DNA from: Escherichia coli
GTDB lineage: Bacteria; Pseudomonadota; Gammaproteobacteria; Enterobacterales; Enterobacteriaceae
Length of the DNA: 64,000 nt
Assembly: GCF_016026235.1 (NCBI RefSeq)
Contig: NZ_CP065613.1
Strand: one strand, 5' to 3'
Shown here: in pieces, positions 3,201 through 36,132 of the stretch
Position numbering within the stretch: the first letter of the stretch is position 1
How the letters are laid out: each line of letters begins with the position of its first letter
Position numbers and translations under genes: made by a program
Notes under the pieces: model-generated
Told to the model about the DNA's origin: nothing
What the model saw: the letters and a program-made list of their open reading frames with translations, nothing else
The model's database searches: none

Positions 3201-3365
3201 CTCCTTTGTGGTGCTCGCATCCTGTCATAGCCGTTTCGTTAAATCGACGGCCAGTTTTCAATCCTGGAAAGCGCCTCGCAAAGTGAATCTCAGGTGAAGG
3301 CACGACAACAAAAGTATTGTGATAAAATCGCCAACTTCTGGTGTCACCCTACAGGAAAAATCATC

Positions 3366-4586
3366 ATGAGCCTGGCCGGTAAAAAAATCGTTCTCGGCGT
3401 TAGCGGCGGTATTGCTGCCTATAAAACCCCTGAACTGGTGCGTTGTTTGCGCGATCGCGGGGCCGACGTCCGCGTAGCCATGACCGAAGCGGCAAAAGCC
3501 TTTATCACCCCACTTAGCTTGCAGGCGGTTTCTGGTTATCCCGTTTCCGACAGTCTGCTGGACCCGGCAGCCGAAGCCGCTATGGGCCATATTGAGCTGG
3601 GTAAATGGGCTGATTTAGTGATTCTCGCCCCTGCCACGGCAGATTTGATTGCCCGTGTTGCTGCCGGAATGGCGAATGACCTGGTATCGACGATTTGTCT
3701 GGCTACACCTGCGCCTGTAGCCGTGCTCCCCGCCATGAACCAGCAGATGTACCGTGCCGCTGCCACGCAGCATAATTTAGAGGTGCTTGCTTCCCGTGGT
3801 TTGCTCATCTGGGGGCCAGACAGTGGCAGTCAGGCTTGTGGTGATATCGGTCCTGGGCGAATGCTCGATCCGTTAACCATTGTGGATATGGCGGTAGCGC
3901 ATTTTTCGCCCGTCAACGACCTGAAACATCTGAACATTATGATTACCGCCGGCCCGACGCGTGAACCGCTCGATCCCGTGCGTTATATCTCTAATCACAG
4001 CTCCGGCAAGATGGGTTTTGCTATCGCCGCCGCCGCTGCCCGTCGTGGCGCGAACGTCACGCTGGTATCAGGTCCGGTTTCACTACCAACGCCACCGTTT
4101 GTTAAACGTGTTGATGTGATGACCGCGCTGGAAATGGAAGCCGCCGTGAATGCTTCTGTACAGCAGCAAAATATTTTTATCGGCTGCGCCGCCGTGGCGG
4201 ATTATCGCGCAGCTACCGTGGCCCCAGAGAAAATCAAAAAGCAGGCCACGCAGGGTGATGAATTAACAATAAAAATGGTTAAAAACCCCGATATCGTCGC
4301 AGGCGTTGCCGCACTAAAAGACCATCGACCCTACGTCGTTGGATTTGCCGCCGAAACAAATAATGTGGAAGAATACGCCCGGCAAAAACGTATCCGTAAA
4401 AACCTTGATCTGATCTGCGCGAACGATGTTTCCCAGCCAACTCAAGGATTTAACAGCGACAACAACGCATTACACCTTTTCTGGCAGGACGGAGATAAAG
4501 TCTTACCGCTTGAGCGCAAAGAGCTCCTTGGCCAATTATTACTCGACGAGATCGTGACCCGTTATGATGAAAAAAATCGACGTTAA
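3366..4586 (+). CDS. coaBC: bifunctional phosphopantothenoylcysteine decarboxylase / phosphopantothenate-cysteine ligase
   Basis: ATG at 3366 gives 406 aa [21 protein letters not shown]... (flavoprotein N-domain plus CoaB C-domain); the listed ORF 3294..4586 is an upstream extension. Confidence 0.95.
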
Positions 4587-7732: not shown

Positions 7733-8449
7733 TCAGTTTGCCAGCGCCGCCTTCTGCGTCGCTACAATGGATTCGATTCCCCCTCGGGCCAGCGCCAACA
7801 AGGTGAGTAACTCTTCATGGGTGAACGGCTCGCCTTCTGCCGTCCCCTGCACTTCAATGATGCGCCCGTCTTCGGTCATCACTACGTTCATGTCGGTCTC
7901 TGCGGCTGAGTCTTCAACGTATTCCAGATCGCAAACCGCTTCGCCGTTCACAATCCCGACAGAAACCGCGGCTACCATCCCTTTCATTGGATTGGTTTTC
8001 AGCTTGCCGTTTTCCACCAGCTTCTGTAGCGCATCTGCCAGCGCCACACAGGCACCCGTAATCGAAGCGGTACGCGTGCCACCATCAGCCTGAAGCACGT
8101 CGCAGTCCAGCGTAATGGTGAACTCACCCAGCGCTTTCAAATCTACTGCCGCACGAAGAGCACGGGCGATCAGACGCTGGATTTCCATTGTGCGTCCACC
8201 CTGCTTACCTTTCGCTGCTTCACGAGCGTTACGGGTGTGGGTAGAACGTGGCAGCATGCCGTATTCTGCGGTGATCCAGCCCTGGCCCTGACCTTTCAGG
8301 AAGCGAGGCACGCCTTCTTCAATAGAGGCGGTACACAATACTTTGGTATCGCCAAATTCGACCAGCACCGAGCCTTCTGCATGTTTTGTATAGTTACGAG
8401 TCAGGGTAACGGGACGCACCTGATTATTGCTACGGCCTGCTGGACGCAT
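7733..8449 (-). CDS. rph: ribonuclease PH, intact full-length reading frame
   Basis: ATG at 8449 gives 238 aa [41 protein letters not shown]..., read through to the natural C-terminus without the K-12 rph-1 frameshift. Confidence 0.95.
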
Positions 8450-8575: not shown

Positions 8576-9439
8576 ATGATCCGCAGTATGACCGCCTACG
8601 CCCGGCGTGAAATCAAGGGTGAATGGGGGAGCGCAACCTGGGAAATGCGCTCGGTAAACCAGCGTTATCTGGAAACTTACTTTCGTCTGCCGGAGCAGTT
8701 CCGTAGCCTTGAACCTGTCGTTCGTGAGCGTATTCGTTCTCGCCTGACGCGCGGTAAAGTGGAATGTACCCTGCGCTATGAGCCAGATGTTAGCGCGCAA
8801 GGTGAGCTGATCCTCAACGAAAAACTGGCTAAACAGCTGGTAACTGCCGCGAACTGGGTAAAAATGCAGAGTGACGAAGGGGAAATCAACCCGGTTGATA
8901 TTCTGCGCTGGCCGGGCGTGATGGCAGCCCAGGAGCAGGATCTTGACGCCATTGCCGCTGAAATTCTCGCGGCGTTGGATGGCACCCTGGACGACTTTAT
9001 TGTCGCGCGCGAAACCGAAGGTCAGGCACTGAAAGCATTGATCGAGCAGCGTCTGGAAGGCGTCACCGCCGAAGTGGTCAAAGTCCGCTCCCATATGCCG
9101 GAAATCCTGCAATGGCAGCGTGAACGCTTGGTCGCGAAGCTGGAAGATGCTCAGGTGCAGTTGGAAAACAACCGTCTGGAGCAGGAGTTGGTTCTGCTGG
9201 CACAACGAATTGACGTTGCCGAAGAGCTGGACCGCCTCGAAGCGCATGTCAAAGAGACCTACAACATTCTGAAGAAAAAAGAAGCCGTTGGTCGTCGTCT
9301 GGACTTTATGATGCAGGAGTTCAACCGCGAGTCGAACACTCTTGCGTCGAAGTCTATCAATGCCGAAGTGACAAACTCCGCGATTGAGCTGAAAGTGTTG
9401 ATTGAGCAGATGCGCGAGCAGATTCAGAATATTGAATAA
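8576..9439 (+). CDS. yicC: YicC-family stress-induced protein
   Basis: 287 aa MIRSMTAYARREIKGEWGSATWEMRSVNQRYLETYFRLPEQFR... matches the YicC family. Confidence 0.95.
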   Translation: MIRSMTAYARREIKGEWGSATWEMRSVNQRYLETYFRLPEQFRSLEPVVRERIRSRLTRGKVECTLRYEPDVSAQGELILNEKLAKQLVTAANWVKMQSDEGEINPVDILRWPGVMAAQEQDLDAIAAEILAALDGTLDDFIVARETEGQALKALIEQRLEGVTAEVVKVRSHMPEILQWQRERLVAKLEDAQVQLENNRLEQELVLLAQRIDVAEELDRLEAHVKETYNILKKKEAVGRRLDFMMQEFNRESNTLASKSINAEVTNSAIELKVLIEQMREQIQNIE

Positions 9440-14301: not shown

Positions 14302-16410
14302 TTGTATCTGTTTGAAAGCCTGAATCAACTGATTCAAACCTACCTGCCGGAAGACCAAATCAAGCGTCTGCGGCAGGCGTATCTCGTTGCACGTGATGCT
14401 CACGAGGGGCAAACACGTTCAAGCGGTGAACCCTATATCACGCACCCGGTAGCGGTTGCCTGCATTCTGGCCGAGATGAAACTCGACTATGAAACGCTAA
14501 TGGCGGCGCTGCTGCATGACGTGATTGAAGATACACCCGCCACCTACCAGGACATGGAACAGCTTTTTGGTAAAAGCGTCGCCGAGCTGGTAGAGGGGGT
14601 GTCGAAACTTGATAAGCTCAAGTTCCGCGATAAGAAAGAGGCGCAGGCCGAAAACTTTCGCAAGATGATTATGGCGATGGTGCAGGATATCCGCGTCATT
14701 CTCATCAAACTTGCCGACCGTACCCACAACATGCGCACGCTGGGCTCACTTCGCCCGGACAAACGTCGCCGCATCGCCCGTGAAACTCTCGAAATTTATA
14801 GCCCGCTGGCGCACCGTTTAGGTATCCACCACATTAAAACCGAACTCGAAGAGCTGGGTTTTGAGGCGCTGTATCCCAATCGTTACCGCGTAATTAAAGA
14901 AGTGGTGAAAGCCGCGCGCGGCAACCGTAAAGAGATGATCCAAAAAATCCTCTCTGAAATCGAAGGGCGTTTGCAGGAAGCGGGAATACCGTGCCGCGTC
15001 AGTGGTCGCGAGAAGCATCTTTATTCGATTTACTGCAAAATGGTGCTCAAAGAGCAGCGTTTTCACTCGATCATGGACATCTACGCTTTCCGCGTGATCG
15101 TCAATGATTCCGACACCTGTTATCGCGTGCTCGGCCAGATGCATAGCCTGTATAAGCCGCGTCCGGGTCGCGTGAAAGACTACATCGCTATTCCAAAAGC
15201 GAACGGCTATCAGTCGTTGCACACCTCGATGATTGGCCCGCACGGCGTGCCGGTTGAGGTCCAAATCCGTACCGAAGATATGGATCAGATGGCGGAGATG
15301 GGTGTTGCCGCGCACTGGGCTTATAAAGAGCACGGCGAAACCAGCACGACTGCACAAATCCGCGCCCAGCGCTGGATGCAAAGCCTGCTGGAGCTGCAAC
15401 AAAGCGCCGGTAGCTCGTTTGAATTTATCGAGAGCGTTAAATCCGATCTCTTCCCGGATGAGATTTACGTTTTCACACCGGAAGGGCGCATTGTCGAACT
15501 GCCTGCCGGTGCAACGCCCGTCGACTTCGCTTATGCAGTGCATACCGATATCGGTCATGCCTGCGTGGGCGCACGCGTCGACCGCCAGCCTTACCCGCTG
15601 TCGCAGCCGCTTACTAGCGGTCAAACCGTTGAAATCATTACCGCACCGGGCGCTCGCCCGAATGCCGCTTGGCTGAACTTTGTCGTTAGCTCGAAAGCGC
15701 GCGCCAAAATTCGTCAGTTGCTGAAAAACCTCAAGCGTGATGATTCTGTAAGCCTGGGCCGTCGTCTGCTCAACCATGCTTTGGGTGGTAGCCGTAAGCT
15801 GAATGAAATCCCGCAGGAAAATATTCAGCGCGAGCTGGATCGTATGAAGCTGGCAACGCTTGACGATCTGCTGGCAGAAATCGGACTTGGTAACGCAATG
15901 AGCGTGGTGGTCGCGAAAAATCTGCAACATGGGGACGCCTCCATTCCACCGGCAACCCAAAGTCACGGACATCTGCCCATTAAAGGTGCCGATGGCGTGC
16001 TGATCACCTTTGCGAAATGCTGCCGCCCTATTCCTGGCGACCCGATTATCGCCCACGTCAGCCCCGGTAAAGGTCTGGTGATCCACCATGAATCCTGCCG
16101 TAACATCCGTGGCTACCAGAAAGAGCCAGAGAAGTTTATGGCTGTGGAATGGGATAAAGAGACGGCGCAGGAGTTCATCACCGAAATCAAGGTGGAGATG
16201 TTCAATCATCAGGGCGCGCTGGCAAACCTGACGGCGGCAATTAACACCACGACTTCGAATATTCAAAGTTTGAATACGGAAGAGAAAGATGGTCGCGTCT
16301 ACAGCGCCTTTATTCGTCTGACCGCTCGTGACCGTGTGCATCTGGCGAATATCATGCGCAAAATCCGCGTGATGCCAGACGTGATTAAAGTCACCCGAAA
16401 CCGAAATTAA
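14302..16410 (+). CDS. spoT: bifunctional (p)ppGpp synthetase/hydrolase SpoT
   Basis: 702 aa starting at a TTG codon (MYLFESLNQLIQTYLPEDQIKRL...), with HD hydrolase, synthetase, TGS and ACT regions. Confidence 0.95.
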   Translation: MYLFESLNQLIQTYLPEDQIKRLRQAYLVARDAHEGQTRSSGEPYITHPVAVACILAEMKLDYETLMAALLHDVIEDTPATYQDMEQLFGKSVAELVEGVSKLDKLKFRDKKEAQAENFRKMIMAMVQDIRVILIKLADRTHNMRTLGSLRPDKRRRIARETLEIYSPLAHRLGIHHIKTELEELGFEALYPNRYRVIKEVVKAARGNRKEMIQKILSEIEGRLQEAGIPCRVSGREKHLYSIYCKMVLKEQRFHSIMDIYAFRVIVNDSDTCYRVLGQMHSLYKPRPGRVKDYIAIPKANGYQSLHTSMIGPHGVPVEVQIRTEDMDQMAEMGVAAHWAYKEHGETSTTAQIRAQRWMQSLLELQQSAGSSFEFIESVKSDLFPDEIYVFTPEGRIVELPAGATPVDFAYAVHTDIGHACVGARVDRQPYPLSQPLTSGQTVEIITAPGARPNAAWLNFVVSSKARAKIRQLLKNLKRDDSVSLGRRLLNHALGGSRKLNEIPQENIQRELDRMKLATLDDLLAEIGLGNAMSVVVAKNLQHGDASIPPATQSHGHLPIKGADGVLITFAKCCRPIPGDPIIAHVSPGKGLVIHHESCRNIRGYQKEPEKFMAVEWDKETAQEFITEIKVEMFNHQGALANLTAAINTTTSNIQSLNTEEKDGRVYSAFIRLTARDRVHLANIMRKIRVMPDVIKVTRNRN

Positions 16411-16416
16411 TGTTTT

Positions 16417-17106
16417 ATGAACCCAACACGTTATGCACGCATCTGCGAAATGCTCGCCAGGCGGCAGCCTGATCTGACCGTCTGCATGGAGCAGGTCCAC
16501 AAACCTCATAACGTTTCTGCGATTATTCGTACCGCAGATGCCGTTGGCGTACATGAAGTTCACGCCGTCTGGCCTGGTAGCCGCATGCGTACCATGGCCT
16601 CTGCGGCGGCGGGTAGCAACAGTTGGGTGCAGGTGAAAACGCACCGCACCATTGGCGATGCCGTCGCTCATCTCAAAGGCCAGGGCATGCAAATTCTGGC
16701 AACCCATCTTTCTGATAACGCTGTCGATTTTCGCGAAATTGATTACACTCGCCCGACCTGCATTTTGATGGGTCAGGAGAAAACGGGCACCACTGAGGAA
16801 GCGTTGGCCCTGGCGGATCGGGACATCATCATTCCGATGATTGGCATGGTGCAATCGCTGAATGTTTCCGTTGCCTCAGCCCTCATTCTTTACGAAGCCC
16901 AGCGCCAGCGGCAAAATGCGGGCATGTACCTGCGTGAAAACAGCATGTTGCCGGAAGCAGAGCAACAACGCCTGTTGTTTGAAGGCGGCTATCCGGTGCT
17001 GGCGAAAGTCGCAAAACGCAAAGGCCTGCCTTACCCCCACGTCAATCAGCAAGGCGAGATCGAAGCTGATGCCGACTGGTGGGCTACTATGCAGGCTGCA
17101 GGGTAA
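16417..17106 (+). CDS. trmH: tRNA (guanosine18-2-prime-O)-methyltransferase
   Basis: 229 aa MNPTRYARICEMLARRQPDLTVCMEQVHKPHNVSAIIRTADAVG..., SpoU family. Confidence 0.95.
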   Translation: MNPTRYARICEMLARRQPDLTVCMEQVHKPHNVSAIIRTADAVGVHEVHAVWPGSRMRTMASAAAGSNSWVQVKTHRTIGDAVAHLKGQGMQILATHLSDNAVDFREIDYTRPTCILMGQEKTGTTEEALALADRDIIIPMIGMVQSLNVSVASALILYEAQRQRQNAGMYLRENSMLPEAEQQRLLFEGGYPVLAKVAKRKGLPYPHVNQQGEIEADADWWATMQAAG

Positions 17107-17111
17107 GTGCC

Positions 17112-19193
17112 ATGAAAGGTCGCCTGTTAGATGCTGTCCCGCTCAGTTCCCTAACGGGCGTTGGCGCAGCGCTTAGTAACAAGCTGGCGAAAATCAACCT
17201 GCAGACTGTGCAGGATCTACTCTTACACCTTCCCCTGCGCTACGAAGATCGCACCCATCTCTACCCCATCGGAGAACTACTACCGGGCGTTTATGCCACG
17301 GTGGAAGGCGAAGTGCTGAATTGCAATATCACCTTCGGCGGCCGCCGGATGATGACCTGCCAGATCAGCGACGGTTCCGGCATTCTCACCATGCGCTTTT
17401 TCAACTTCAACGCGGCAATGAAAAATAGCCTGGCGACGGGCCGCCGTGTGCTGGCCTATGGAGAAGCAAAGCGCGGTAAATATGGTGCGGAGATGATCCA
17501 CCCGGAATACCGCGTGCAGGGCGATCTCAGTACGCCAGAGTTGCAGGAAACGCTCACGCCGGTTTATCCAACAACCGAAGGCGTAAAGCAGGCCACGCTG
17601 CGTAAATTAACCGACCAGGCGCTGGATCTGCTCGACACCTGCGCCATTGAAGAACTCCTGCCGCCGGAACTGTCACAAGGAATGATGACGCTACCGGAAG
17701 CGTTGCGCACTTTGCACCGCCCGCCGCCGACGCTGCAACTTAGCGATCTGGAAACCGGGCAGCATCCGGCGCAACGTCGTCTGATTCTGGAAGAACTGCT
17801 GGCGCATAACCTCAGCATGTTAGCCTTACGCGCCGGAGCGCAACGTTTCCATGCCCAGCCGCTGAGCGCCAATGACACGCTGAAAAATAAACTTCTTGCC
17901 GCCTTACCGTTCAAGCCAACGGGCGCTCAGGCTCGCGTGGTGGCGGAGATCGAGCGCGATATGGCGCTGGATGTGCCGATGATGCGCCTGGTACAGGGCG
18001 ATGTAGGTTCCGGTAAAACGCTGGTCGCTGCCCTCGCCGCGCTGCGTGCGATTGCCCACGGCAAACAGGTGGCATTGATGGCACCAACCGAATTACTCGC
18101 CGAACAGCACGCCAATAACTTCCGTAACTGGTTTGCACCGCTCGGTATCGAAGTGGGCTGGCTCGCCGGTAAGCAGAAAGGTAAAGCGCGGCTGGCACAG
18201 CAGGAAGCCATCGCCAGCGGTCAGGTGCAGATGATTGTCGGAACACACGCCATCTTCCAGGAACAGGTGCAGTTTAACGGCCTGGCGCTGGTGATTATCG
18301 ACGAACAGCATCGCTTTGGCGTGCATCAGCGTCTGGCATTGTGGGAGAAAGGCCAGCAGCAAGGCTTCCATCCGCATCAGTTGATCATGACCGCCACGCC
18401 GATCCCCCGCACGCTGGCGATGACTGCGTATGCCGATCTCGACACCTCGGTCATTGATGAACTGCCGCCAAGCCGCACGCCAGTGACTACGGTCGCTATT
18501 CCTGATACTCGCCGTACCGACATCATTGACCGCGTGCGCCACGCCTGCATAACTGAAGGTCGTCAGGCGTACTGGGTTTGTACGTTGATTGAAGAGTCAG
18601 AGTTACTGGAAGCGCAGGCGGCGGAAGCTACCTGGGAAGAGTTGAAACTGGCGCTACCAGAATTGAATGTTGGCCTGGTACACGGGCGGATGAAACCAGC
18701 CGAGAAACAGGCGGTGATGGCGTCGTTTAAACAAGGTGAGCTACATCTGCTGGTTGCCACTACCGTTATTGAAGTCGGTGTTGATGTGCCTAACGCCAGC
18801 CTGATGATTATCGAAAACCCTGAGCGTCTGGGTCTGGCGCAGTTACACCAGCTGCGCGGGCGCGTAGGTCGTGGCGCGGTGGCTTCTCACTGCGTGCTGC
18901 TCTACAAAACGCCGCTTTCTAAAACGGCGCAAATTCGCCTGCAAGTGCTGCGCGACAGTAACGACGGTTTTGTGATTGCGCAAAAAGATCTGGAGATTCG
19001 CGGCCCTGGCGAATTGTTAGGCACGCGTCAGACGGGTAATGCTGAATTTAAAGTGGCGGATTTACTGCGCGATCAGGCGATGATCCCGGAAGTTCAGCGC
19101 CTGGCGCGACATATTCACGAACGTTACCCACAACAGGCAAAAGCCTTGATAGAACGCTGGATGCCGGAGACGGAACGTTACTCCAACGCATGA
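17112..19193 (+). CDS. recG: ATP-dependent DNA helicase RecG
   Basis: ATG at 17112 gives 693 aa MKGRLLDAVPLSSLTGVGAALSNKLAKINLQTVQDLL... with Walker A GDVGSGKT and the DEQH box. Confidence 0.95.
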   Translation: MKGRLLDAVPLSSLTGVGAALSNKLAKINLQTVQDLLLHLPLRYEDRTHLYPIGELLPGVYATVEGEVLNCNITFGGRRMMTCQISDGSGILTMRFFNFNAAMKNSLATGRRVLAYGEAKRGKYGAEMIHPEYRVQGDLSTPELQETLTPVYPTTEGVKQATLRKLTDQALDLLDTCAIEELLPPELSQGMMTLPEALRTLHRPPPTLQLSDLETGQHPAQRRLILEELLAHNLSMLALRAGAQRFHAQPLSANDTLKNKLLAALPFKPTGAQARVVAEIERDMALDVPMMRLVQGDVGSGKTLVAALAALRAIAHGKQVALMAPTELLAEQHANNFRNWFAPLGIEVGWLAGKQKGKARLAQQEAIASGQVQMIVGTHAIFQEQVQFNGLALVIIDEQHRFGVHQRLALWEKGQQQGFHPHQLIMTATPIPRTLAMTAYADLDTSVIDELPPSRTPVTTVAIPDTRRTDIIDRVRHACITEGRQAYWVCTLIEESELLEAQAAEATWEELKLALPELNVGLVHGRMKPAEKQAVMASFKQGELHLLVATTVIEVGVDVPNASLMIIENPERLGLAQLHQLRGRVGRGAVASHCVLLYKTPLSKTAQIRLQVLRDSNDGFVIAQKDLEIRGPGELLGTRQTGNAEFKVADLLRDQAMIPEVQRLARHIHERYPQQAKALIERWMPETERYSNA

Positions 19194-20044
19194 CCAGACT
19201 CATCACGAGACAAGTCACGCAGTAAATCTTCAATCTGGATAGTGAGGATATCCATTGCCTCATACGCATCCTGTGCAATTCGCGCCGCCATTGCGCCTTC
19301 CGGTTCACCACGCAGAATTTCAGCCGCTGCCTGTACGCCAGCCACAATCATTTCAGGTGTTAACATTTGGCGAAGAAAAGCGCGATTATCAGAGGACCAG
19401 CCATCTTTATGGCCTAATGGATGCCCCCAGCCTATCCATTCTTGCGACCATAACGGATTGGCTTCTATGGGATAAATTAGATGCGCGGCATACTGAATAG
19501 CACACACCGCTTTTCCCGGCGTATCCAGCGCCCACCAGCGCGACCAGAGAGAACGAATTAACGGCGCGGCCCCACCCAGAGTATTGAACACCGCCAGCCA
19601 GCAAAGAACGTTATTGAAACCACGCTCGTTATCCATACGCTGCAACGCGGTGTCCAGTAAAAATTGCCGTACCTGCTGGCGTTGGGAAGCATTCATCATC
19701 TCCTGCCAGAGATAGGGCCGACGCAATGCCTTCATTAAGGATTCTTCGAAGTGATCACCATAACCGCCAGCTAAAACGGTTTCATGCCATTGCGCCAGGC
19801 AGAGCGGAAACAGATAGCGAAACAACTCTATTTGCATCGGTTCGTTATAAACGAGATTGAGTACATAGTAAGCACTCAAATCCCATTCGCTGATCTGCTG
19901 CCACTCTTTAGCCGCCAGCGCCTTGAGTTCGGCATCTGCGTAATCAAATTCCGTTTCCCATACACAGAGCACTGGCGGCTCATCACCAAAAATGTGGCGA
20001 CAGTGTTCACGTAGCGTTTCCGGTTCCTTCCGACGCTTTTTCAT
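19178..20044 (-). CDS. hypothetical protein, no recognisable domain; accessory relative to K-12
   Basis: 288-aa ORF (MKKRRKEPETLREHCRHIFGDEPPVLCVWETEF...) with E. coli-like codon usage; its ATG lies 2 bp after the gltS stop (GGT TAA AA ATG) and its 3-prime end overlaps the recG stop by 16 bp. No TM segment or signal peptide evident; tryptophan-rich. Confidence 0.6.
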   Translation of the reverse strand: MKKRRKEPETLREHCRHIFGDEPPVLCVWETEFDYADAELKALAAKEWQQISEWDLSAYYVLNLVYNEPMQIELFRYLFPLCLAQWHETVLAGGYGDHFEESLMKALRRPYLWQEMMNASQRQQVRQFLLDTALQRMDNERGFNNVLCWLAVFNTLGGAAPLIRSLWSRWWALDTPGKAVCAIQYAAHLIYPIEANPLWSQEWIGWGHPLGHKDGWSSDNRAFLRQMLTPEMIVAGVQAAAEILRGEPEGAMAARIAQDAYEAMDILTIQIEDLLRDLSRDESGHALE

Positions 20045-20046
20045 TT

Positions 20047-21252
20047 TTAACCCGCAAAAATCGGCAACATCAAATACAGCTTAATCACCAGCGCGTTAAC
20101 GATATCAATAAAGAACGCACCGACCATCGGCACTACCAGGAAGGCCATGTGCGACGGGCCAAAACGTTCAGTGATCGCCTGCATGTTGGCGATTGCCGTT
20201 GGTGTTGCACCGAGGCCAAAACCACAGTGACCCGCAGCCAGCACTGCCGCATCGTAGTTTTTGCCCATCATGCGCCAGGTAACGAAGATGGCATACAACG
20301 CCATGAAGATGGTCTGTACCACCAGAATCGCCAGCATCGGCAGCGCCAGCGAAGCCAGCTCCCACAGTTTCAGCCCCATCAACGCCATCGCCAGGAACAA
20401 CGACAAGCTTACGTTACCCAGCACGGATACCGCACGCTCAAAGACGCGGTAAAAGCCCATTATTGACAGACCGTTGCTCAGAATCACGCCAACAAACAGT
20501 ACACAGACGAAGGTCGGCAGTTCAAAAGCAGTGCCAGCCAAAAGTTGCGCAACAATTTTCCCCACCGTCAGGCAGATAGCAATCAGCGCGATAGTTTCAA
20601 TCAGCACCAACGAGGTGATCATGCGGCCCACATCCGGCTTTTCAAACGCCGTCGGGACTTCCTGGTCATCCGGAATACCGTTCGGCGTGGTGGAGTGTTT
20701 CACCAGATAGCGCGCTACCGGACCGCCAATCAAGCCGCCCAGCACCAAACCGAACGTTGCACAGGCCATCGCCACTTCCGTCGCATTGGTGAAGCCATAA
20801 CGTTCAATGAACAATTTACTCCATGCAGCTCCCGTACCGTGACCGCCGGAAAGCGTAATAGAACCGGCCAACAGCCCCATCAGCGGATCAAGCCCTAACA
20901 GGCTAGCCATCCCAATGCCAATGGCATTTTGCATCACCAACAGACCAACAACCACAATCAGGAAGATGCCAACCACACGCCCACCGGCACGCAAACTGGC
21001 AATGTTGGCGTTCAGGCCAATGGTGGCGAAGAATGCCAGCATTAACGGATCGCGCAGGGACATATCAAAGTTGACTTCCCAGCCCATGCTTTTTTTCAGT
21101 ACCAGTAGCGCCAGCGCCACCAACAAACCACCCGCAACAGGTTCCGGTATGGTGTATTTCTTCAAAAAGGAGACGGAATGGACCAACTTACGCCCGAGCA
21201 GCAACGTCAGCGTTGCGGCAACAAGCGTTGCTAAAGTATCGAGATGAAACAT
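20047..21252 (-). CDS. gltS: sodium/glutamate symporter
   Basis: 401 aa MFHLDTLATLVAATLTLLLGRKLVHSVSFLKKYTIPEPVAGGLLVAL..., polytopic. Confidence 0.95.
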   Translation of the reverse strand: MFHLDTLATLVAATLTLLLGRKLVHSVSFLKKYTIPEPVAGGLLVALALLVLKKSMGWEVNFDMSLRDPLMLAFFATIGLNANIASLRAGGRVVGIFLIVVVGLLVMQNAIGIGMASLLGLDPLMGLLAGSITLSGGHGTGAAWSKLFIERYGFTNATEVAMACATFGLVLGGLIGGPVARYLVKHSTTPNGIPDDQEVPTAFEKPDVGRMITSLVLIETIALIAICLTVGKIVAQLLAGTAFELPTFVCVLFVGVILSNGLSIMGFYRVFERAVSVLGNVSLSLFLAMALMGLKLWELASLALPMLAILVVQTIFMALYAIFVTWRMMGKNYDAAVLAAGHCGFGLGATPTAIANMQAITERFGPSHMAFLVVPMVGAFFIDIVNALVIKLYLMLPIFAG

Positions 21253-21531
21253 AGTTACTCCTTTGTATCCGCATCACTCTTTCATACTCGTCATACTTCA
21301 TCGCGCAGTGGCAACTTCATGAACTATGACGGGTATCGAGTTATGCTTTCCTGGGTCAAATTCTCAGCTGTTAATGAAAAAATGGCATGGATTTTAAGCA
21401 GAAAAATACCAAAAGTTATATAAAAAAGTGCATTTATCTCATTTAAATATTTAGATGAGGATGTGGCAAACGTTTGCTTTTCTCTTTCGGTCAGCTAAAA
21501 TGCCCGCTTTGCTACCACGGGATTGTTTTCG

Positions 21532-24753: not shown

Positions 24754-24761
24754 AAATAAGG

Positions 24762-24787
24762 ACGCTAGCGGATATCAGCGCTAGCGT
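24762..24787 (-). terminator. stem-loop between convergent yicH and the last gene of the sugar island; probable terminator of the island operon
   Basis: ACGCTAGCG-(8 nt loop)-CGCTAGCGT perfect 9-bp stem; on the minus strand it is followed by CCUUAUUUUUAC. Confidence 0.4.
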
Positions 24788-24796
24788 TCCCCGTTA

Positions 24797-25477
24797 TTAG
24801 CGCAAAATTCCATACTCACTGCACAATAACCATTTCACCGGTTCATCTTCTTCTATCGCAGGAAAACGTCCTCCCGGCTCAAGAAAATAGTTATCGTGTT
24901 GGTCATCATTTACCATCGAAATTTCCCAGCCGAGAACAAACGCTTTTTCCGCCCAGAAGCGATGATACAGACGCGGCGGCAGGCAAATGCCCTGCCCCGG
25001 CTTTAACACCAGCGTTTCACCAGGTTTCATGGTACGCCGCTGACCATCAACACTCACGGTAATGACTCGTTGATCATCACAGAGACTGGCTTCGTTGGCC
25101 CAGGCCAACTGCATGCATAAGTCTCCACCGCCCCGATTGAGGATATCTTCCATTTTGTGGGTGTGAAAATGCCAGGGAGTCTGCTGATCTTGTTGGATCT
25201 GCAACATTTTCTCAGCATACGGTTTTGGATATGCCGCCGACCCCAGCGCGCCGTTGCGCATCGTTAGCAGTGTTAGTCCCGTTTGGTTGAAATCACCACG
25301 ACCAAAATCGGTGATATCCCAACCGAGCTGTAAGTCGACCACTTCTTGCCAGTTATCCCGTTCCCGCTGCAGCCAGTCATCCACCGTAAAATAGGCGAAC
25401 TCTGGCAAACAAACGCGGAAGGTCTGCGCAATGGCATGTGCTTTATCAATAACATAATTAATTTGTGAACGTTTCAT
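24797..25477 (-). CDS. cupin-fold sugar isomerase-like protein (D-lyxose/D-mannose isomerase family-like)
   Basis: 226 aa from the ATG at 25477 (GGAGAA Shine-Dalgarno 6 nt upstream); MKRSQINYVIDKAHAIAQTF... with a His/Glu-rich cupin core (WHFHTHKMEDIL). The family call is a recalled similarity, not searched. Confidence 0.75.
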   Translation of the reverse strand: MKRSQINYVIDKAHAIAQTFRVCLPEFAYFTVDDWLQRERDNWQEVVDLQLGWDITDFGRGDFNQTGLTLLTMRNGALGSAAYPKPYAEKMLQIQQDQQTPWHFHTHKMEDILNRGGGDLCMQLAWANEASLCDDQRVITVSVDGQRRTMKPGETLVLKPGQGICLPPRLYHRFWAEKAFVLGWEISMVNDDQHDNYFLEPGGRFPAIEEDEPVKWLLCSEYGILR

Positions 25478-26390
25478 TGGCTTCTCCGTTGCGCATAGCA
25501 AGCCAGGCAGCGCCACGCATTCCGCTACTGTCGCCGTGCTGTGCTTTTACAATGGGAGTGGTGAATTGATCGGTGAAAACCAGTGGAGTGACTTCTGCGT
25601 TCAGATCGGTGATAAGCAGTTCCACATTCGAAAGCCCGCCGCCGATCACAATCACGCCAGGGTCAACAACATTAACGATGGTTGCGAGCGTGCGGGCAAG
25701 CTGTTGGCGAAAACGTGCCACCTGCTGCATGGCACAAGCATCACCACGTTGTGCCAGGGTGACAATCGCCGCAGGAGTGAGCAAGTTACCAGTCATCTGT
25801 TGATAGCGTTCACTAAAACCGCTGCCGGAAACAAACGACTCCACGCAGTTGTGTTTGCCGCAATAGCAACTGACTGATGGACCATCTTCCTGCTCCGTAT
25901 AGCCTGGCAACGTGATATGACCGCATTCGGCAGCATTTCCCCAGGCCCCTATAAACGGTCGTTGCTTGATGGCAATGCCACCGCCGCAGCCCGTACCAAG
26001 CGTAATACCAAATACCACGTCATAATCTTGCCCCGCACCGTCGCAAACTTCTGATAGCGCGAAACAGTTACCATCATTGGCTATCACCACCGGTTGCCCA
26101 AGCAATTGCTGCAAATCAGCCTGTAACGCATGACCGTTAATCACCTGAATATTCGCGTTTTTAATCAGGCCAGTGAGTGGCGAGATACTGCCGGGTAAGG
26201 CGATCCCTGTCAGCATCGGTCGTTGAACGTCCCGCCTAATCTGCTCGATAAGTGCCACAACGCATGAGACAAATTGTTGATATGTCGACTTTTGCGTCGG
26301 GCAGCGGTAACGGCGAATCTCCCAGCCATGCGCATCCATGACGACGGCGGCGATTTTGGTCCCACCAATATCCAACCCCAGATAGTGCAT
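25458..26390 (-). CDS. ROK-family sugar kinase
   Basis: ATG at 26390 (AAGGAA Shine-Dalgarno); MHYLGLDIGGTKIAAVVMD... N-terminal ATP-binding motif and a Cys/His zinc motif (CYCGKHNCVE) typical of the ROK family. Confidence 0.85.
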   Translation of the reverse strand: MHYLGLDIGGTKIAAVVMDAHGWEIRRYRCPTQKSTYQQFVSCVVALIEQIRRDVQRPMLTGIALPGSISPLTGLIKNANIQVINGHALQADLQQLLGQPVVIANDGNCFALSEVCDGAGQDYDVVFGITLGTGCGGGIAIKQRPFIGAWGNAAECGHITLPGYTEQEDGPSVSCYCGKHNCVESFVSGSGFSERYQQMTGNLLTPAAIVTLAQRGDACAMQQVARFRQQLARTLATIVNVVDPGVIVIGGGLSNVELLITDLNAEVTPLVFTDQFTTPIVKAQHGDSSGMRGAAWLAMRNGEANETFTN

Positions 26391-26437
26391 ATCTCGTTCC
26401 TTGTTGCGTAAAAGGCGGGTCACCCCGCCCTTCTGGC

Positions 26438-27298
26438 TTAGTACAGTGATGCTTTACCGAGCGAACCGAACAGTTTCATTTTGTGGCGAATGACTTCCCG
26501 CGCCGCGTTAATCGCATCCGGATAGATGACGTTCGGGTCCCACCAGCTCTCTTTAGCGAGAATTTCACGCACTTTCTGGAAATAGGCGTATTTCATATCG
26601 CTGGAGATATTGATTTTGCCGACGCCGAGCGTAACTGATTCAGCAATCTCCGCGTCCGGGTTTGCCGAACCACCGTGTAGTACCAGCGGAATATCAATAC
26701 GTCCGGCAATGTCGCGCAAAATGTTCATTTGCAGCTTCGGTTGCATCCCTTTTGGATAGATGCCATGCGCTGTACCAATCGCCACAGCCAGTGTGTCGGC
26801 ACCTGTACGAGCAATAAAATCGGCGGCCTGCGCCGGATCTGTGTAGGTCACTTGTGAAACACCACCTTCTACCGACGTTCCTGTTTGTCCGATGGTTCCC
26901 AGTTCACCTTCAACCGACACGCCAACCGCGTGAGCGAGGCGAACCACTTCTGCGGTCAGCGCCACGTTTTCTTCATACGGCAGCAGCGAACCGTCGATCA
27001 TTACTGAGGTAAATCCGCAGCGAATCGCACGCAAAACATGCTCTACAGAGGCACCATGATCGAGGTGCAGTACAAACGGGACTGGACTACGCTGGGTAAT
27101 TTCGCGAACGTGAGCGAAAAAGGCATCGCCCACAAAATCATGTTCGCTGGGATGGATGGCAATAATCGCCGGAGTATTTGTCGCTTCTGCTTCATCCACG
27201 ACTGCGCGAAGGAAACAGTTATCCGCCACATTAAATGCGCCAATGGCAAAGCCGTGCTGGCGGGTAGGTTGCAGTAATTCTTTCATCGAAACTAACAT
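26438..27298 (-). CDS. class II ketose-bisphosphate aldolase (GatY/KbaY/FbaA family), copy 1
   Basis: 286 aa with LHLDHGAS metal-binding motif and ...AIGTAHG.. / LVLHGGS motifs. Confidence 0.85.
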   Translation of the reverse strand: MLVSMKELLQPTRQHGFAIGAFNVADNCFLRAVVDEAEATNTPAIIAIHPSEHDFVGDAFFAHVREITQRSPVPFVLHLDHGASVEHVLRAIRCGFTSVMIDGSLLPYEENVALTAEVVRLAHAVGVSVEGELGTIGQTGTSVEGGVSQVTYTDPAQAADFIARTGADTLAVAIGTAHGIYPKGMQPKLQMNILRDIAGRIDIPLVLHGGSANPDAEIAESVTLGVGKINISSDMKYAYFQKVREILAKESWWDPNVIYPDAINAAREVIRHKMKLFGSLGKASLY

Positions 27299-27378
27299 GT
27301 TAAATCTCCAGTTTCAGCGTGTAGTCCGCCCTGCCGGTGCGTTATTGCACTGGCATAAAGGCCATGACAGAAAATGAA

Positions 27379-28230
27379 TCAGGCTTTGCCGATAGAGCCG
27401 CTCGCCTGTAAATACGGTGTAATCGCTTCTTCGAAGGCCAGTTCCATAGCTTTCAGCGCGTCCACCAGTTCAATGGATATATCGTGACAGAGGGTATGCA
27501 GGAGCGCGGATTTCCCCCGTTCAAAAATGGCCGCCCCCACGTTGATTTTTGCTACCCCCAGCGTCGTACAGAGCTGGAGCTGATCGAACGGCGTACCGCT
27601 ACCGCCATGTAATGCCAGAGGCACGCTCGAGCAGTGGAAAATCTCCGCCAGACGCTGAAAATCAATAGCAGGTACAACACCAGGCGCGTACATGCCGTGC
27701 GCCGTACCCACAGAGACAGCCAGTAGATCAATGCCTGTCTGCGCGATAAACGGTTCCACATCAGTGGGTTGCGTCATCATGTCTGCATTGGCGGCCTGGT
27801 CGTAACGCGGCGCATCTGCCAGATGGCCCAGTTCGCCTTCCACGCAGAGCTGCGCGCTGGCGGCGAGTTCCACCACCGCCCTGGTCTGGCGCACGTTTTC
27901 CTCCAGGGGAAAAGCAGAAGCATCAATCATTAATCCGCTGAAACCAGCACGAAACGCCTGACGAATACAGTCCGGATTTTTGCCATGATCAAGCGCCAGA
28001 GTGACCGGTACTGAAGCAGATTCCGCGAGCGTTTTAACCACTGCCGCCGCGACGGGTGCAGGAAAATGCGCCAGATGCCCCTGATATAGATTGAGAATGA
28101 TCGGAGCGCGATTCTTCTCCGCCACGCGGATAGCTGCGTAAGCACTTTCCAGATTCATACAGTTGATCGCCAGCAAGGCGTAATGTTCATGCCAGGCTTT
28201 CATCACCATACTTTTCATATCGGCAAACAT
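27379..28230 (-). CDS. class II ketose-bisphosphate aldolase, copy 2 (divergent paralog)
   Basis: 283 aa with LALDHGKN, SVGTAHG and LALHGGSG motifs; GGAGG Shine-Dalgarno upstream. Confidence 0.85.
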   Translation of the reverse strand: MFADMKSMVMKAWHEHYALLAINCMNLESAYAAIRVAEKNRAPIILNLYQGHLAHFPAPVAAAVVKTLAESASVPVTLALDHGKNPDCIRQAFRAGFSGLMIDASAFPLEENVRQTRAVVELAASAQLCVEGELGHLADAPRYDQAANADMMTQPTDVEPFIAQTGIDLLAVSVGTAHGMYAPGVVPAIDFQRLAEIFHCSSVPLALHGGSGTPFDQLQLCTTLGVAKINVGAAIFERGKSALLHTLCHDISIELVDALKAMELAFEEAITPYLQASGSIGKA

Positions 28231-28241
28231 AGGGCCTCCGG

Positions 28242-29333
28242 TTATTCGAGGGTGAAAGTGATCTCTTCATCTTTCAGCTTTTGATCGCTCAGTTCGTCAA
28301 ACTCTTCGTCGCGTTCCGTTACCGGTTTCTTCCAGAGTGAAAGCATCACGCCACAAATCACCGTGCCTATACCCAGCGCCAGGCAAAACAGCAGAGGATG
28401 GGTGAACAGAGGCACAACAAACATGCCGCCATGCGGAACCGGACTCTCCACGCCCCACACCATGATTAAGCCGCCCGCGACCGCCGATGCCACCACACAA
28501 GATCCCACTACTCGCAGCAGGTCACGCGCGGCGATCGGAATGACTCCTTCAGTGATCATGCAGATCCCCATCGGAAACGCGGCTTTCAGCGCCTCGCGCT
28601 CCGCACGGGTGTATTTATGGCGTGTCAGTAAGAACGAAAGTGTGATGCCAAACGGAGGGATGATTGAGCCGACAAATTTCACGGCTTCTGGTCCGTAGAC
28701 GCCACTGACCAGCAAGCCATCGGAAAACAGCGACATGGTTTTGTTGACCGGACCACCGAAATCGAAGGTTGCCATCGCGCCAAGTATGGCCCCCATCAGG
28801 AAGCGCGATCCGCCCTGCATCGACTCGAGCAAATGAATCAGTGCTTCTTGTAACCAGGCGATGGGTTTACCAATCAGCGTCATCATTAACAGCCCACCGA
28901 TAATGGTGCTTAATACCGGCAACACCATGATTGGCATGAGTCCTTGCATCGACTGCGGCAGGCGGATATAGCGTTTAAGTAGCAAAATGGTGTAGCCCAC
29001 CAGGAAACCACCCAACATACCGCCAATAAATCCGGTATGGATTTGCCCACAGAGAAAGCCGACAATCAGACCCGGGGCAAATCCGGGACGATCGGCAATA
29101 GAATAGGCAATTGCCGCGCTAATCAGCGGCACAATCAGCCCCATTCCCCAGCCGCCAATCTGATTAAGCATCCACGGGATTGTTCCTGTTTTTTCACCAA
29201 CATCTGTACCGCCAAGAACTTGCCCCAACGCAATACATATCCCGGCGGCCACAATAAGGGGTATCATCCACGAGATGCCGGTTAATAAATGTTTTTTAAT
29301 TTCCTGTGAAACCGGAATTTTATTGTCTTTCAT
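28242..29333 (-). CDS. PTS fructose-family EIIC permease component
   Basis: 363 aa, highly hydrophobic and polytopic, adjacent to the EIIB and EIIA genes. Confidence 0.85.
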   Translation of the reverse strand: MKDNKIPVSQEIKKHLLTGISWMIPLIVAAGICIALGQVLGGTDVGEKTGTIPWMLNQIGGWGMGLIVPLISAAIAYSIADRPGFAPGLIVGFLCGQIHTGFIGGMLGGFLVGYTILLLKRYIRLPQSMQGLMPIMVLPVLSTIIGGLLMMTLIGKPIAWLQEALIHLLESMQGGSRFLMGAILGAMATFDFGGPVNKTMSLFSDGLLVSGVYGPEAVKFVGSIIPPFGITLSFLLTRHKYTRAEREALKAAFPMGICMITEGVIPIAARDLLRVVGSCVVASAVAGGLIMVWGVESPVPHGGMFVVPLFTHPLLFCLALGIGTVICGVMLSLWKKPVTERDEEFDELSDQKLKDEEITFTLE

Positions 29334-29357
29334 ATTAAGATCCCTCCAGTATAAGGA

Positions 29358-29672
29358 TCATTTGTTTCCCAGTGATTTTTCGACCTTTTCAAGAAATTGA
29401 ACGGGCGATTTAATGACGATCTCTGTCTTTACTCGCACAATACGTTTATTGGTGAAGCGTTCTTCTCCTTTTATTTTCACATCTACAGCAAGAATCACGA
29501 CGTCAGCAGCAGAGATATCTGCCGCCTGTAATTCATTTTCTGTACCAATGGTTCCCTGGGTTTCAACTTTAATGGTATGGCCCAGAGCTTTTGCTCCTTT
29601 GATTAACTTTTCACGAGCAATATAGGTATGAGCAATACCCGCCGTACAGGCGGCAACACAGACAATATTCAT
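29358..29672 (-). CDS. PTS fructose-family EIIB component
   Basis: 104 aa MNIVCVAACTAGIAHTYIAREKL..., with the phospho-cysteine loop CxxGxAHT. Confidence 0.85.
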   Translation of the reverse strand: MNIVCVAACTAGIAHTYIAREKLIKGAKALGHTIKVETQGTIGTENELQAADISAADVVILAVDVKIKGEERFTNKRIVRVKTEIVIKSPVQFLEKVEKSLGNK

Positions 29673-29689
29673 GACATACTCCCTGTTAT

Positions 29690-30160
29690 TTAGCAGACAT
29701 CGGATTGTGCATACTGACTAAAGAGATCAATGATTTTTTGCGGACTCGTCTCAACTAACAATTGTTCTATGATGTCATCATCCGCCAGCGCGCCCGCGAC
29801 CTGGGAAAGTAAACGGATATGGGTGGTATTTTGATCTTCAAGACGTACCGCAAATAAAATAATACAGCGCACGCTACTACCATCCAGCGTTTCCCAAGGA
29901 ATATCCTGGCGGGTACGGCCAATTGCCAGCGTAGTATTAATTACCGCAGAAGATTTACCATGCGGGATCGCAATATGATTTTCAAAACCAGTCGAGCCTT
30001 CCGCTTCGCGCTGCCAGACATCTTTAATAAAGGTTTCCCGACAATCGATCGCACCATCTTTTTTGAGAAGATTAGTTAATTCTTCAATCGCCTCCGCTTT
30101 ATTCGTCGCTTGCATATCTAAAATAACGCGATTCGTATTCAGGATTTTTGTTATGTCCAT
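29690..30160 (-). CDS. PTS EIIA component (fructose/mannitol type)
   Basis: 156 aa with the phosphorylatable histidine context IAIPHGK. Confidence 0.85.
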   Translation of the reverse strand: MDITKILNTNRVILDMQATNKAEAIEELTNLLKKDGAIDCRETFIKDVWQREAEGSTGFENHIAIPHGKSSAVINTTLAIGRTRQDIPWETLDGSSVRCIILFAVRLEDQNTTHIRLLSQVAGALADDDIIEQLLVETSPQKIIDLFSQYAQSDVC

Positions 30161-30186
30161 TCGTCATACCTCATAAAATTCTGACA

Positions 30187-31740
30187 TTAAATTTCAACGA
30201 CCCGAGACGTCGCATGATGTAATTTTTCCGTAATCACCACTTCAGTGATCCGCTTAATATCGGCATCATTAAAAAAAGCGGTAACATAAGCGACCGGCAT
30301 AGTGACTGTAGGCAAATTAATGGTCGAAATAATCAGTTCGATATTGTCAGGCAAAACCTGTGATAAATTCGCTGCTGAAATAACATCAACAATCGTCCAT
30401 TCAGGAAATGCTCGCAGAATACGGCTTTTCAGTAGATGCGAAGTTCCGATTCCGGTTGAACAGACCAGTAATACACGTTTACGGGCAATTTGCCGCTCCA
30501 TCGCAGCCTGAAAATGAACGGTCAGGTAACCCACTTCATCCTCGCTCACTGCATTCTCACCCCAGGTTTTAAATACCTGATTCACCACATATTGCGTCAA
30601 CCGCCAGACATCCGCTAATTCTGCTTTAATATCTTCCAGCAATGGATTACGGATATGAATACGATAATTTAGTCGGTTAATCAGCGGTTTAATATGCACC
30701 AATAAGCCATCATATAATGCGCTGTCTTCACTAAAATCGCAGTCCACGATGTCACTGAATACCGTAATTAAACGCCAGGTAATAAGACGCGCTTCATTGC
30801 TGGCCTGCATATGTGAAATAATGCTAACATCTTTTTGTCCATCAATCGCCACACCTGATGAAATGATATATTGATAAATAAACCAGACTTCATCATCGGG
30901 CAATGTATGTGCAATTCGTTGTTCTATCTTATGAATCATCTGACTGGCAACATTAAAGATATTTTCATCATATTGCCTGGTTTGATCTTCTTCTCTTGAT
31001 AACGCATTCCCGTGCGTGTTGCGATACATCATAATAAGGATGTGAGTAAAAATGTTAACGTAATAAGGTTCTCCCAAAGACCAACTTAATTCATTTTCCA
31101 TATCCAGTAACAATGACTGGACAAATAACACCTCTTCTTCTCCAAAATAATGGACTAATGCTTTATAACTTCCGGGATCCAGACGTGAATACACGACACC
31201 TTGCGGCTCATTATGGTTAATAATGCCGTTAATCAGTAATGCCATTGCCTGTCGGACTTGCCCTTCACTACCTTCAATATGCGTACCACTTGGGCTGCGG
31301 ATCAACGATAACCCCAACGGCGCAAGCCAGGACTCAATTACTCTCAGGTCATTAACAATAGAGGCTCCGCTGATAAAGTAGCGTTCTGACAATTTACTGA
31401 TCGACGTTTCATTCGGTGTTTCACTTAATAACTGCGACGCTATTTTAACGCGCCTAGCATTATTCATTACACCATCAATCTCTTCACATTCTGCTCCCAA
31501 CAAATGATCAAGATGCAGCAAATCAGCAATATTCTCCGCACTTAACATCACACCCGCGCCAGCACGCTTCTCAACATTTATTCTCCATTGCCCCAGCCAT
31601 TGCTCAAGTAAACGTAAATCACGTTGAATGGTTTTTTCCGAAACATTTAAATAGCCGGCAATCTTAACAATAGTCGTATATTCCCTTCGAGGTAAAAGGA
31701 ATCGTAATAATCTGTTTTGTCGCGAGGTAATCATTTGCAT
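30187..31740 (-). CDS. PTS-regulated transcriptional activator (Mga/BglG-like; HTH plus PRD plus EIIB/EIIA-like domains)
   Basis: 517 aa; N-terminal HTH (YTTIVKIAGYLNVSEKTIQRDLRLLE), central PRD-like regions and a C-terminal PTS EIIB-like segment (RVLLVCSTGIGTSHLL). First gene of the island operon. Confidence 0.8.
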   Translation of the reverse strand: MQMITSRQNRLLRFLLPRREYTTIVKIAGYLNVSEKTIQRDLRLLEQWLGQWRINVEKRAGAGVMLSAENIADLLHLDHLLGAECEEIDGVMNNARRVKIASQLLSETPNETSISKLSERYFISGASIVNDLRVIESWLAPLGLSLIRSPSGTHIEGSEGQVRQAMALLINGIINHNEPQGVVYSRLDPGSYKALVHYFGEEEVLFVQSLLLDMENELSWSLGEPYYVNIFTHILIMMYRNTHGNALSREEDQTRQYDENIFNVASQMIHKIEQRIAHTLPDDEVWFIYQYIISSGVAIDGQKDVSIISHMQASNEARLITWRLITVFSDIVDCDFSEDSALYDGLLVHIKPLINRLNYRIHIRNPLLEDIKAELADVWRLTQYVVNQVFKTWGENAVSEDEVGYLTVHFQAAMERQIARKRVLLVCSTGIGTSHLLKSRILRAFPEWTIVDVISAANLSQVLPDNIELIISTINLPTVTMPVAYVTAFFNDADIKRITEVVITEKLHHATSRVVEI

Positions 31741-32034
31741 TTTTTACCCTTATCACAGATTAAGAAGCCCCATGAGGAAGAGCTTCAGTTGCCATCTCTG
31801 AGGGTAAATATAAAGCAGAATAATTTCACAACAATACTAAAATCTGTCCGTAATCCGGACAGTGATAAAACAAAGCAAGGCGGTTAAGGGATATTTTTCA
31901 GCACAGATCACATTTTCGCGATGAATAATCGTGATCATGCTCGCAAATACGATGGAAGAAATATTTATTACCAGATGTGAGATTATTTACCGGATACGAC
32001 ACGAAACCATTCGTATCCGGCATTCTTCAATAGA

Positions 32035-36037: not shown

Positions 36038-36132
36038 GGAAGATCGTCGTCTCCGGTGAGGCGGCTGGACTTCAAATCCAGTTGGGGCCGCCAGCGGTCC
36101 CGGGCAGGTTCGACTCCTGTGATCTTCCGCCA
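36038..36132 (+). tRNA. selC: tRNA-Sec (selenocysteine tRNA)
   Basis: GGAAGATCGTCGTCTCCGGTGAGGCGGCTGGACTTCAAATCCAGT...GATCTTCCGCCA: 95 nt, long acceptor stem and extended variable arm, TCA anticodon in the loop (CTTCAAATC), genomically encoded CCA. Confidence 0.9.

Follow-up and report, generated by a model that had tools for sequence, protein, structure and literature searches.

The gene between recG and gltS in a 64,000-nucleotide (nt) stretch of Escherichia coli DNA (assembly GCF_016026235.1, contig NZ_CP065613.1; the whole stretch is called the window here) is a genuine protein-coding gene of unknown function that has already been catalogued. Its 288-amino acid (aa) product, encoded at 19178..20044 on the minus strand, is termed X, and this name is used for the gene as well. 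The explanation that accounts best for the observations overall, and that we hold to be probable on balance, is that X is an expressed but dispensable chromosomal gene from an uncharacterised family and an old enteric resident at the end of recG. Dispensability follows from its absence in 65% of E. coli genomes. A preceding reading of the window, made from its sequence only (the sequence-only reading), had described an 867-bp open reading frame (ORF) between recG and gltS, with a start codon 2 bp beyond the gltS stop and a stop codon overlapping the last 16 bp of recG; all three statements were correct (recG ends at 19193).

X as a catalogued and constrained gene

X is annotated in thousands of genomes, under the names Ybl159 (UniRef), ECs_4528 or ECs4528 (O157:H7 Sakai), ECB_03510 (REL606) and WP_000747329.1 (BL21). 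The window protein is 99.3% identical to the BL21 and Sakai copies, with two amino acid differences, and is encoded at the same locus; nothing substantive separates X from these entries, which denote the same gene. In 58 of 58 sampled carrier genomes it is annotated as an intact coding sequence (CDS; 'hypothetical protein' in RefSeq). The Salmonella orthologue occupies the same position and its protein is 70–72% identical. STM3745 of S. Typhimurium LT2 (852 bp, 'hypothetical / putative cytoplasmic protein') is probably this orthologue, an equation based on its size, its name and the LT2 gene order. For STM3745, which is thus only probably X, a premature stop has been reported in one S. Typhimurium lineage (PMC3853940). 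No functional study of X was found in the literature; two papers mention the gene, with no more than the label 'unknown function' (PMC7299349 for X itself and PMC3853940 for STM3745). X is therefore already known and fairly ordinary: a conserved hypothetical accessory gene rather than an odd insertion.

Full-length homologues of X at 34–72% identity were found across phyla, and the ratio of non-synonymous to synonymous substitution rates (dN/dS) was about 0.06–0.19 between genera. For the least saturated pair, two Superficieibacter species, this ratio was 0.19 for X versus 0.022 for recG. The dN of X was 5–10 times that of recG while its dN/dS stayed well under 1, which points to purifying selection on a protein that is constrained, but loosely. 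Between the window copy and the divergent allele of strain EC581 there were 12 synonymous and 10 non-synonymous differences. Codon usage clearly prefers the X frame. The description of this usage as native-looking in the sequence-only reading holds only in part: the GC content at third codon positions (GC3), at 50.5%, is some 10 points under the 60–64% of the five flanking genes.

A chance frame or a decaying relic, the reading in which X has no function, has a probability close to nil. Long spurious ORFs do exist in the window, the gene is dispensable and truncated forms have been reported. However, the frame is conserved at 34–72% identity across phyla with dN/dS values of 0.06–0.28, a confident fold is predicted and no sampled carrier has a broken copy; the breadth of homologues and the dN/dS values together effectively refute this reading. 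One such spurious ORF, of 678 aa with a TTG start (14818–16854, minus strand), runs antisense across most of spoT. It almost certainly arises from the codon structure of spoT, so ORF length alone is no proof of a gene in this window.

By megablast, X was present in 1917 of 5426 complete E. coli genomes (35%), including BL21, REL606 and O157:H7. Every match was chromosomal and 1871 of the 1917 copies were at least 99% identical; the exact protein occurred on at least 1000 contigs. The genes of BL21 (phylogroup A) and O157:H7 Sakai (phylogroup E) are identical over 867 nt (locus L001, 4001–4867; locus L030, 6264–7130), and this near-uniform gene lies next to a recG that differs by 3–5% between the window and K-12. 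Such near-identity across phylogroups suggests that the haplotype has recently spread by recombination, or swept, through E. coli. In Salmonella, the protein cluster held 1301 sequences, subsp. salamae included, and X was carried by all eight distinct Salmonella contexts of a very common GltS allele, indexed in 36,030 blocks.

The first word-indexed homology search missed the E. coli protein, as its 90%-identity cluster had merged with GltS under a 401-aa GltS representative, presumably through gene calls fusing gltS with X. The homologues recovered in this way were from Salmonella (approximately 70% identity), Superficieibacter (64–67%), other enterics (48–56%) and a Zoogloeaceae metagenome-assembled genome (MAG; 37%). 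A second word-indexed protein search with a broad profile added almost nothing. An exhaustive profile search, by comparison, returned, at E ≤ 1e-3, at least 441 clusters (50% identity) through their representatives, 117 of which reached E ≤ 1e-30, and the label 'orphan' given in the sequence-only reading has to be dropped. Nearly all of these members are single-domain proteins of 280–310 aa. X shares the motifs of the Ybl159 family (VWExxFD, LQPxLFxYLFPxCLxxW, WxxWW and W...N) and belongs to it. The family spans Proteobacteria and Planctomycetes, with Cupriavidus, Leminorella, Sulfurovum, Actibacterium, Gimesia and Lignipirellula among the named hosts. A truncated 219-aa homologue (P0031) came from a frameshift-ridden assembly and was set aside as uninformative.

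Descent or insertion at the recG terminus

X converges on the recG stop codon in six lineages: E. coli, Salmonella enterica, a further enteric (locus L007), Superficieibacter (two species), Intestinirhabdus alba and Enterobacter sp. kpr-6. The distance between the X and recG stops ranges from −16 to +2 nt, with a 16-nt overlap in the window and the two stops 1–2 nt apart in other genera. In Superficieibacter, Intestinirhabdus and Enterobacter sp. kpr-6 the locus lacks gltS, and the divergent upstream neighbour is glpX or xanP; since X is found at recG even without gltS, it is with the recG terminus, rather than with gltS, that its linkage is conserved. Compared with the E. coli protein, identity drops stepwise (72, 65, 56, 49 and 48%), with RecG holding at 92–94%.

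Within E. coli, three alleles of the recG-gltS junction were distinguished: allele A, with the X gene (35% of genomes); allele C, with a 33-bp spacer; and allele B, the K-12 type, with 168 bp. The sequence-only reading had given the K-12 junction as about 10 bp without the gene; the gene is indeed missing from K-12, but the spacer in MG1655 is the 168 bp of allele B. Allele C is a single hairpin of 33 bp (IHE3034, locus L027, 1484–1516; HS-02, locus L028, 641–673), and allele B (K-12, locus L012, 5293–5460) is allele C with an insert of approximately 135 bp and a copy of the hairpin on each side. Read by eye, this insert looks like a repetitive extragenic palindromic (REP) element. Matches to allele B that spanned 80% or more of the query were found in 1872 genomes.

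In the direction of gltS, alleles B and C read TAA-CCG-ATGAAGCGGCGG, and allele A, as in the window, reads TAA-AA-ATGAAAAAGCGTCGG. The alleles without X thus keep its ATG and first Lys-Arg-Arg codons (ATGAAGCGGCGG) at the same spot, where the stretch forms the first arm of the hairpin and is followed by TTTTT, making a canonical gltS terminator. The survival of the start codon and first codons in these alleles can be read as a deletion scar, so that K-12 would be the derived state and loss is probably the better reading of this junction.

Outside the Enterobacteriaceae, the neighbourhoods of X are varied. X lies between gapA and yeaD in Leminorella, overlaps the stop of a retropepsin-like protease gene in the Zoogloeaceae MAG (locus L002) and in Cupriavidus belongs to an island that also carries McrBC and a transposase; metagenomic loci place it beside fabF, nrdJ, an aquaporin gene or a TonB-like gene. 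In L002 a 105-nt direct repeat, 93% identical between its copies (2232–2336 and 3272–3376), brackets X. The downstream copy is a duplicated 3' end of the protease gene, seemingly keeping the original C-terminus, and no recombinase is nearby; the repeat is the clean footprint left by insertion of a single gene, 935 nt in length. In Leminorella grimontii (locus L020), X has the gapA terminator on one side and yeaD on the other, and the 18 nt immediately 5' of the X ATG repeat codons 6–11 of the downstream yeaD at 17 of 18 positions (7974–7991 and 8972–8989), with an alignment score of 31 versus a maximum of 25 in 200 shuffles. Around X in E. coli, no flanking repeats were found. X was absent from 50,697 phage records and from viral contigs, and three matches in a plasmid collection all came with recG and look chromosomal, leaving no true plasmid copy. 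Single-gene insertion is the right description for the family at large and probably the wrong one for the event in E. coli.

No recurring partner gene was found in approximately 20 independent neighbourhoods, following clustering of neighbour ORFs from 24 loci and scanning of the neighbours against NCBIfam, PADLOC and Pfam. In two planctomycete-type loci, X is followed either by RlaP, R2K ATP-grasp and RlaP genes (L044, 6901–9427) or by an RNA ligase gene (PF09414) and two RlaP genes (L015, 7999–10736). These loci are related, their X proteins being 51% and their RlaP proteins 66% identical, and the arrangement occurred in no other X neighbourhood examined; the association with RlaP may be simply shared ancestry. 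A two-gene X module in beta-proteobacteria was considered and rejected, the small ORFs 3' of X not being homologous between loci.

Taking these observations together, we consider it quite probable that the Enterobacteriaceae hold X by descent with repeated loss. The sequence-only reading had X as an unusual single-gene accessory insertion, that is, as a recent arrival in a recG-gltS junction originally empty as in K-12, which we judge unlikely. The case for this insertion, and against descent, is drawn from several sources. X is missing from K-12 and from 65% of E. coli, and few enteric species carry it, so that vertical descent needs many losses: in a scan of species representatives (100,044 species), it was found in five from the Enterobacteriaceae and in Leminorella (Budviciaceae). 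The same scan gave no Salmonella, although X is common in S. enterica and the Salmonella protein fits the peptide patterns used; the representative genome may lack X, or the scan may have a limit of its own. The low GC3 of X relative to its flanks, the identity of the BL21 and Sakai alleles at all 867 nt and the near-identity of almost all E. coli copies would fit recent lateral spread within the species. Elsewhere in the family, relatives between core genes have flanking duplications (105 nt in L002, 18 nt in L020), the former being the single-gene footprint. Relative to K-12, the window shows raised divergence in recG and over the final 300 nt of gltS, which fits an old or an imported polymorphism alike. 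Set against insertion are the same position and orientation across six lineages of enterics, whose divergence grows with distance; the presence of X at recG even where gltS is missing; the lack of X on phages, plasmids and viral contigs and of flanking repeats in E. coli; and the X ATG and first four codons held by the alleles without X, which are unexpected for an empty ancestral site. Comparison of the junction across E. coli and Salmonella, which the sequence-only reading had proposed, also showed the frame to be conserved in relatives and K-12 to be without the gene. The preferred history is thus one in which X would be an old resident just past the recG stop in Enterobacteriaceae, kept in about one-third of E. 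coli and most sampled Salmonella, and would have been deleted in K-12-type and B2-type E. coli lineages, where its first codons may survive as an arm of the gltS terminator hairpin.

Possible coupling to gltS and features of the window

On the minus strand the gltS/X junction reads GCG GGT TAA AA ATG AAA AAG, with 2 nt from the gltS stop to the X start, and a GGG, weakly Shine-Dalgarno-like, lies 7–9 nt 5' of the ATG within the final gltS codons. The stop/start spacing is +2 nt in E. coli, +1 in Salmonella (TAA-G-ATG) and −1 in L007 (TAATG). In the genera without gltS, X has a GGAGG-type site 6–7 nt 5' of its ATG. Neither the gltS/X junction of the window nor the overlap of X with recG contained a terminator-like site, and promoter-like matches inside gltS were not above chance in a consensus scan. 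With this close spacing kept in relatives, the junction has the geometry of coupled cistrons. Furthermore, gltS and ECB_03510 were down-regulated together in RNA-seq on REL606 derivatives (PMC7299349). The conserved spacing, the lack of a terminator and the co-regulation support read-through from the gltS promoter with coupled or re-initiated translation. The gltS transcript is very probably the one from which X is expressed, and the translational coupling put forward in the sequence-only reading is plausible from the junction geometry. In Escherichia and Salmonella, X would have neither a promoter nor a strong ribosome-binding site of its own and would depend on gltS read-through and re-initiation at its ATG. 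In allele A, intrinsic terminators are lacking for both recG and gltS-X, and their transcripts must therefore run into each other.

Table 1. Coordinates of X and adjoining features in the window
Feature	Position	Strand	Basis and remarks
X CDS	19178..20044	-	867-nt ORF, 288 codons, ATG start; RefSeq-annotated; homologues and dN/dS; AlphaFold2 model
gltS stop / X start, TAA-AA-ATG	20042..20049	-	sequence; geometry recurs in Salmonella and L007
gltS (sodium/glutamate symporter), upstream gene	20047..21252	-	100% identical to K-12 GltS; presumed carrier transcript of X
X/recG convergent 3'-end overlap, 16 nt	19178..19193		coordinates
recG, convergent neighbour	17112..19193	+	tblastn synteny and annotation; adjoins X in six enteric lineages
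gltS-xanP divergent intergenic region, presumed site of the gltS-X promoter	21253..21522		inferred from gene order only

Elsewhere in the window, Rfam gave only two matches, tRNA-Sec (selC; 36038–36128, plus strand) and the istR small RNA (55032–55161, minus strand), and no Rfam family matched at the X region. Genes like setC, nlpA and nepI directly follow selC, so this strain has no island at selC. A block of approximately 7.3 kb between yicH and yicI (24760–32030) is missing from K-12 and Sakai and present in 1606 of the 5426 E. coli genomes; it encodes a BglG/PRD-type regulator, a fructose-like phosphotransferase system (PTS) IIC component, two class II aldolase-like proteins, a ROK kinase and a D-lyxose/mannose isomerase. 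We take this block to resemble the 'frz' accessory sugar operon of extraintestinal pathogenic E. coli (ExPEC).

The predicted protein and its possible function

The X protein contains 13 tryptophans (4.5%) and its highest 19-residue Kyte-Doolittle mean is 1.46, versus 2.57 for GltS, giving no transmembrane segment; the highly charged N-terminus (MKKRRKEPE) indicates that there is no signal peptide. The sequence-only reading had described the protein in the same terms and had assigned it to no family or motif, and here too the searches agreed with it. Neither X nor 63 diverse members gave a significant Pfam match (five single-member matches had E values of 0.02–0.085). The best NCBIfam match had an E value of 0.018 and 13.9 bits versus a cut-off of 817, and there were zero PADLOC and zero PHROGs matches for X. 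AlphaFold2, with an alignment of 18 sequences, predicted an all-alpha protein of 15 helices (predicted local distance difference test score, pLDDT, 88.9; predicted template modelling score, pTM, 0.88). Foldseek matches in AFDB50 either belonged to the family or were uncharacterised proteins, so that X has no structural relative that is characterised, and a profile search of PDB sequences gave nothing significant (top E value 0.98). DUF1822, the name on one AFDB50 match that was 20% identical, was discarded, as none of the 63 members matched its profile even at E ≤ 0.1. The family has a median isoelectric point (pI) of 5.0 and the E. coli protein a net charge of −14.

Conservation among the 63 members, which come from several phyla, is highest at P80 (100%), Q71 and N220 (97%), W216 (95%), D34, W86, W170 and G177 (94%) and Y60 (92%); the position of E73 is acidic in 94%. 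These near-invariant polar and aromatic residues look more like a ligand-binding or active site than a co-evolving immunity interface. HEAT/ARM/TOG-type alpha-solenoid proteins are possible relatives in fold. Another lead was the AlkD/AlkC HEAT-like-repeat DNA glycosylases, which are similar in being small bacterial all-alpha repeat proteins with conserved Trp and Asp residues, and a DNA-repair gene adjoins X in enterics. An AlkD-type glycosylase would be expected to match Pfam DNA_alkylation or to be close in structure, and to have a basic DNA-binding concave face; X does not fit this description, and the candidate was rejected.

A tentative proposal, which we regard as possible rather than probable, is that X works on its own in the cytoplasm as a dispensable protein that binds a ligand, or possibly as an enzyme, using a conserved aromatic and acidic site. 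The product would be an acidic (pI approximately 5), soluble all-alpha solenoid of about 15 helices with no conserved partner gene. It may act alone, a suggestion of low confidence drawn from the pattern of conservation, through a putative working site made up of D34, Y60, Q71, E73, P80, W86, W170, G177, W216 and N220, on a ligand that would be unrelated to glutamate transport or RecG.

This last point concerns the neighbouring genes, whose coupling to X (gltS) and overlap with it (recG) the sequence-only reading had stressed. A functional accessory role, either as a cytoplasmic regulator or partner of GltS or as a factor acting with RecG, would account for the tight gltS coupling geometry in three genera, for the co-regulation and for the abutment to recG conserved in six lineages, but we hold it to be very improbable. 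Superficieibacter, Intestinirhabdus and Enterobacter sp. kpr-6 have X and no gltS at the locus; in Leminorella, Cupriavidus, Zoogloeaceae and Planctomycetes, X is next to neither gene. GltS and RecG of K-12 work without X, and descent accounts for synteny that is confined to one family. Because X occurs without gltS and without recG, it appears to serve neither. A place in conflict systems, with X as an orphan immunity protein against an incoming toxin (typically a basic nuclease) or as a single-gene defence or anti-defence factor, seems to us doubtful, though not to the same degree. X and the orphan immunity proteins of polymorphic toxin systems (e.g. helical-repeat proteins encoded 3' of rhs) are alike in size, acidity, helical-repeat build, patchy presence within and between species and fast evolution, X evolving 5–10 times faster than neighbouring genes; X is also found beside McrBC and a transposase in Cupriavidus and, in the two planctomycete-type loci, beside patatin, RNA ligase and RlaP or beside RlaP and R2K ATP-grasp. 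In contrast to such immunity proteins, X is never beside a toxin gene, with no toxin, Rhs, contact-dependent inhibition (CDI) or type VI secretion system (T6SS) gene adjacent in the approximately 20 contexts, and no PADLOC, PHROG or Pfam Imm-family match was obtained (Pfam for the 63 members). Its dN/dS, well under 1, and its near lack of diversity within E. coli indicate purifying rather than diversifying selection; near-invariance of polar and aromatic residues (92–100%) across phyla is unusual for immunity proteins, and the link to RlaP is confined to two related loci.

A more speculative idea, to which we give only a slim chance, is that the Ybl159 family represents a new class of alpha-solenoid that binds ligands or acts as a catalyst on its own, with a site of Asp/Glu/Gln/Asn and Trp/Tyr residues, that spreads as a promoter-less single-gene cassette docking on the 3' ends of host genes and takes part, perhaps, in nucleic-acid damage or conflict pathways. 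The cassette would fit the 105-nt target duplication in Zoogloeaceae, the gapA-yeaD position in Leminorella and the 2-nt coupling to gltS; the pathways are suggested by the neighbours recG, SSB, McrBC and RNA ligase with RlaP.

X is a typical conserved hypothetical gene and indicates no new principle. Its analysis corrects the record at the recG-gltS junction, where K-12 probably represents the derived state. About one-third of E. coli, including B strains and O157:H7, and most sampled Salmonella have an extra uncharacterised cytoplasmic protein that is very probably made from the gltS transcript. The Ybl159 family to which it belongs is sizeable and crosses phyla, with a confident predicted fold and no Pfam entry, and is thus a reasonable target for a new Pfam/DUF entry and for a knockout study.

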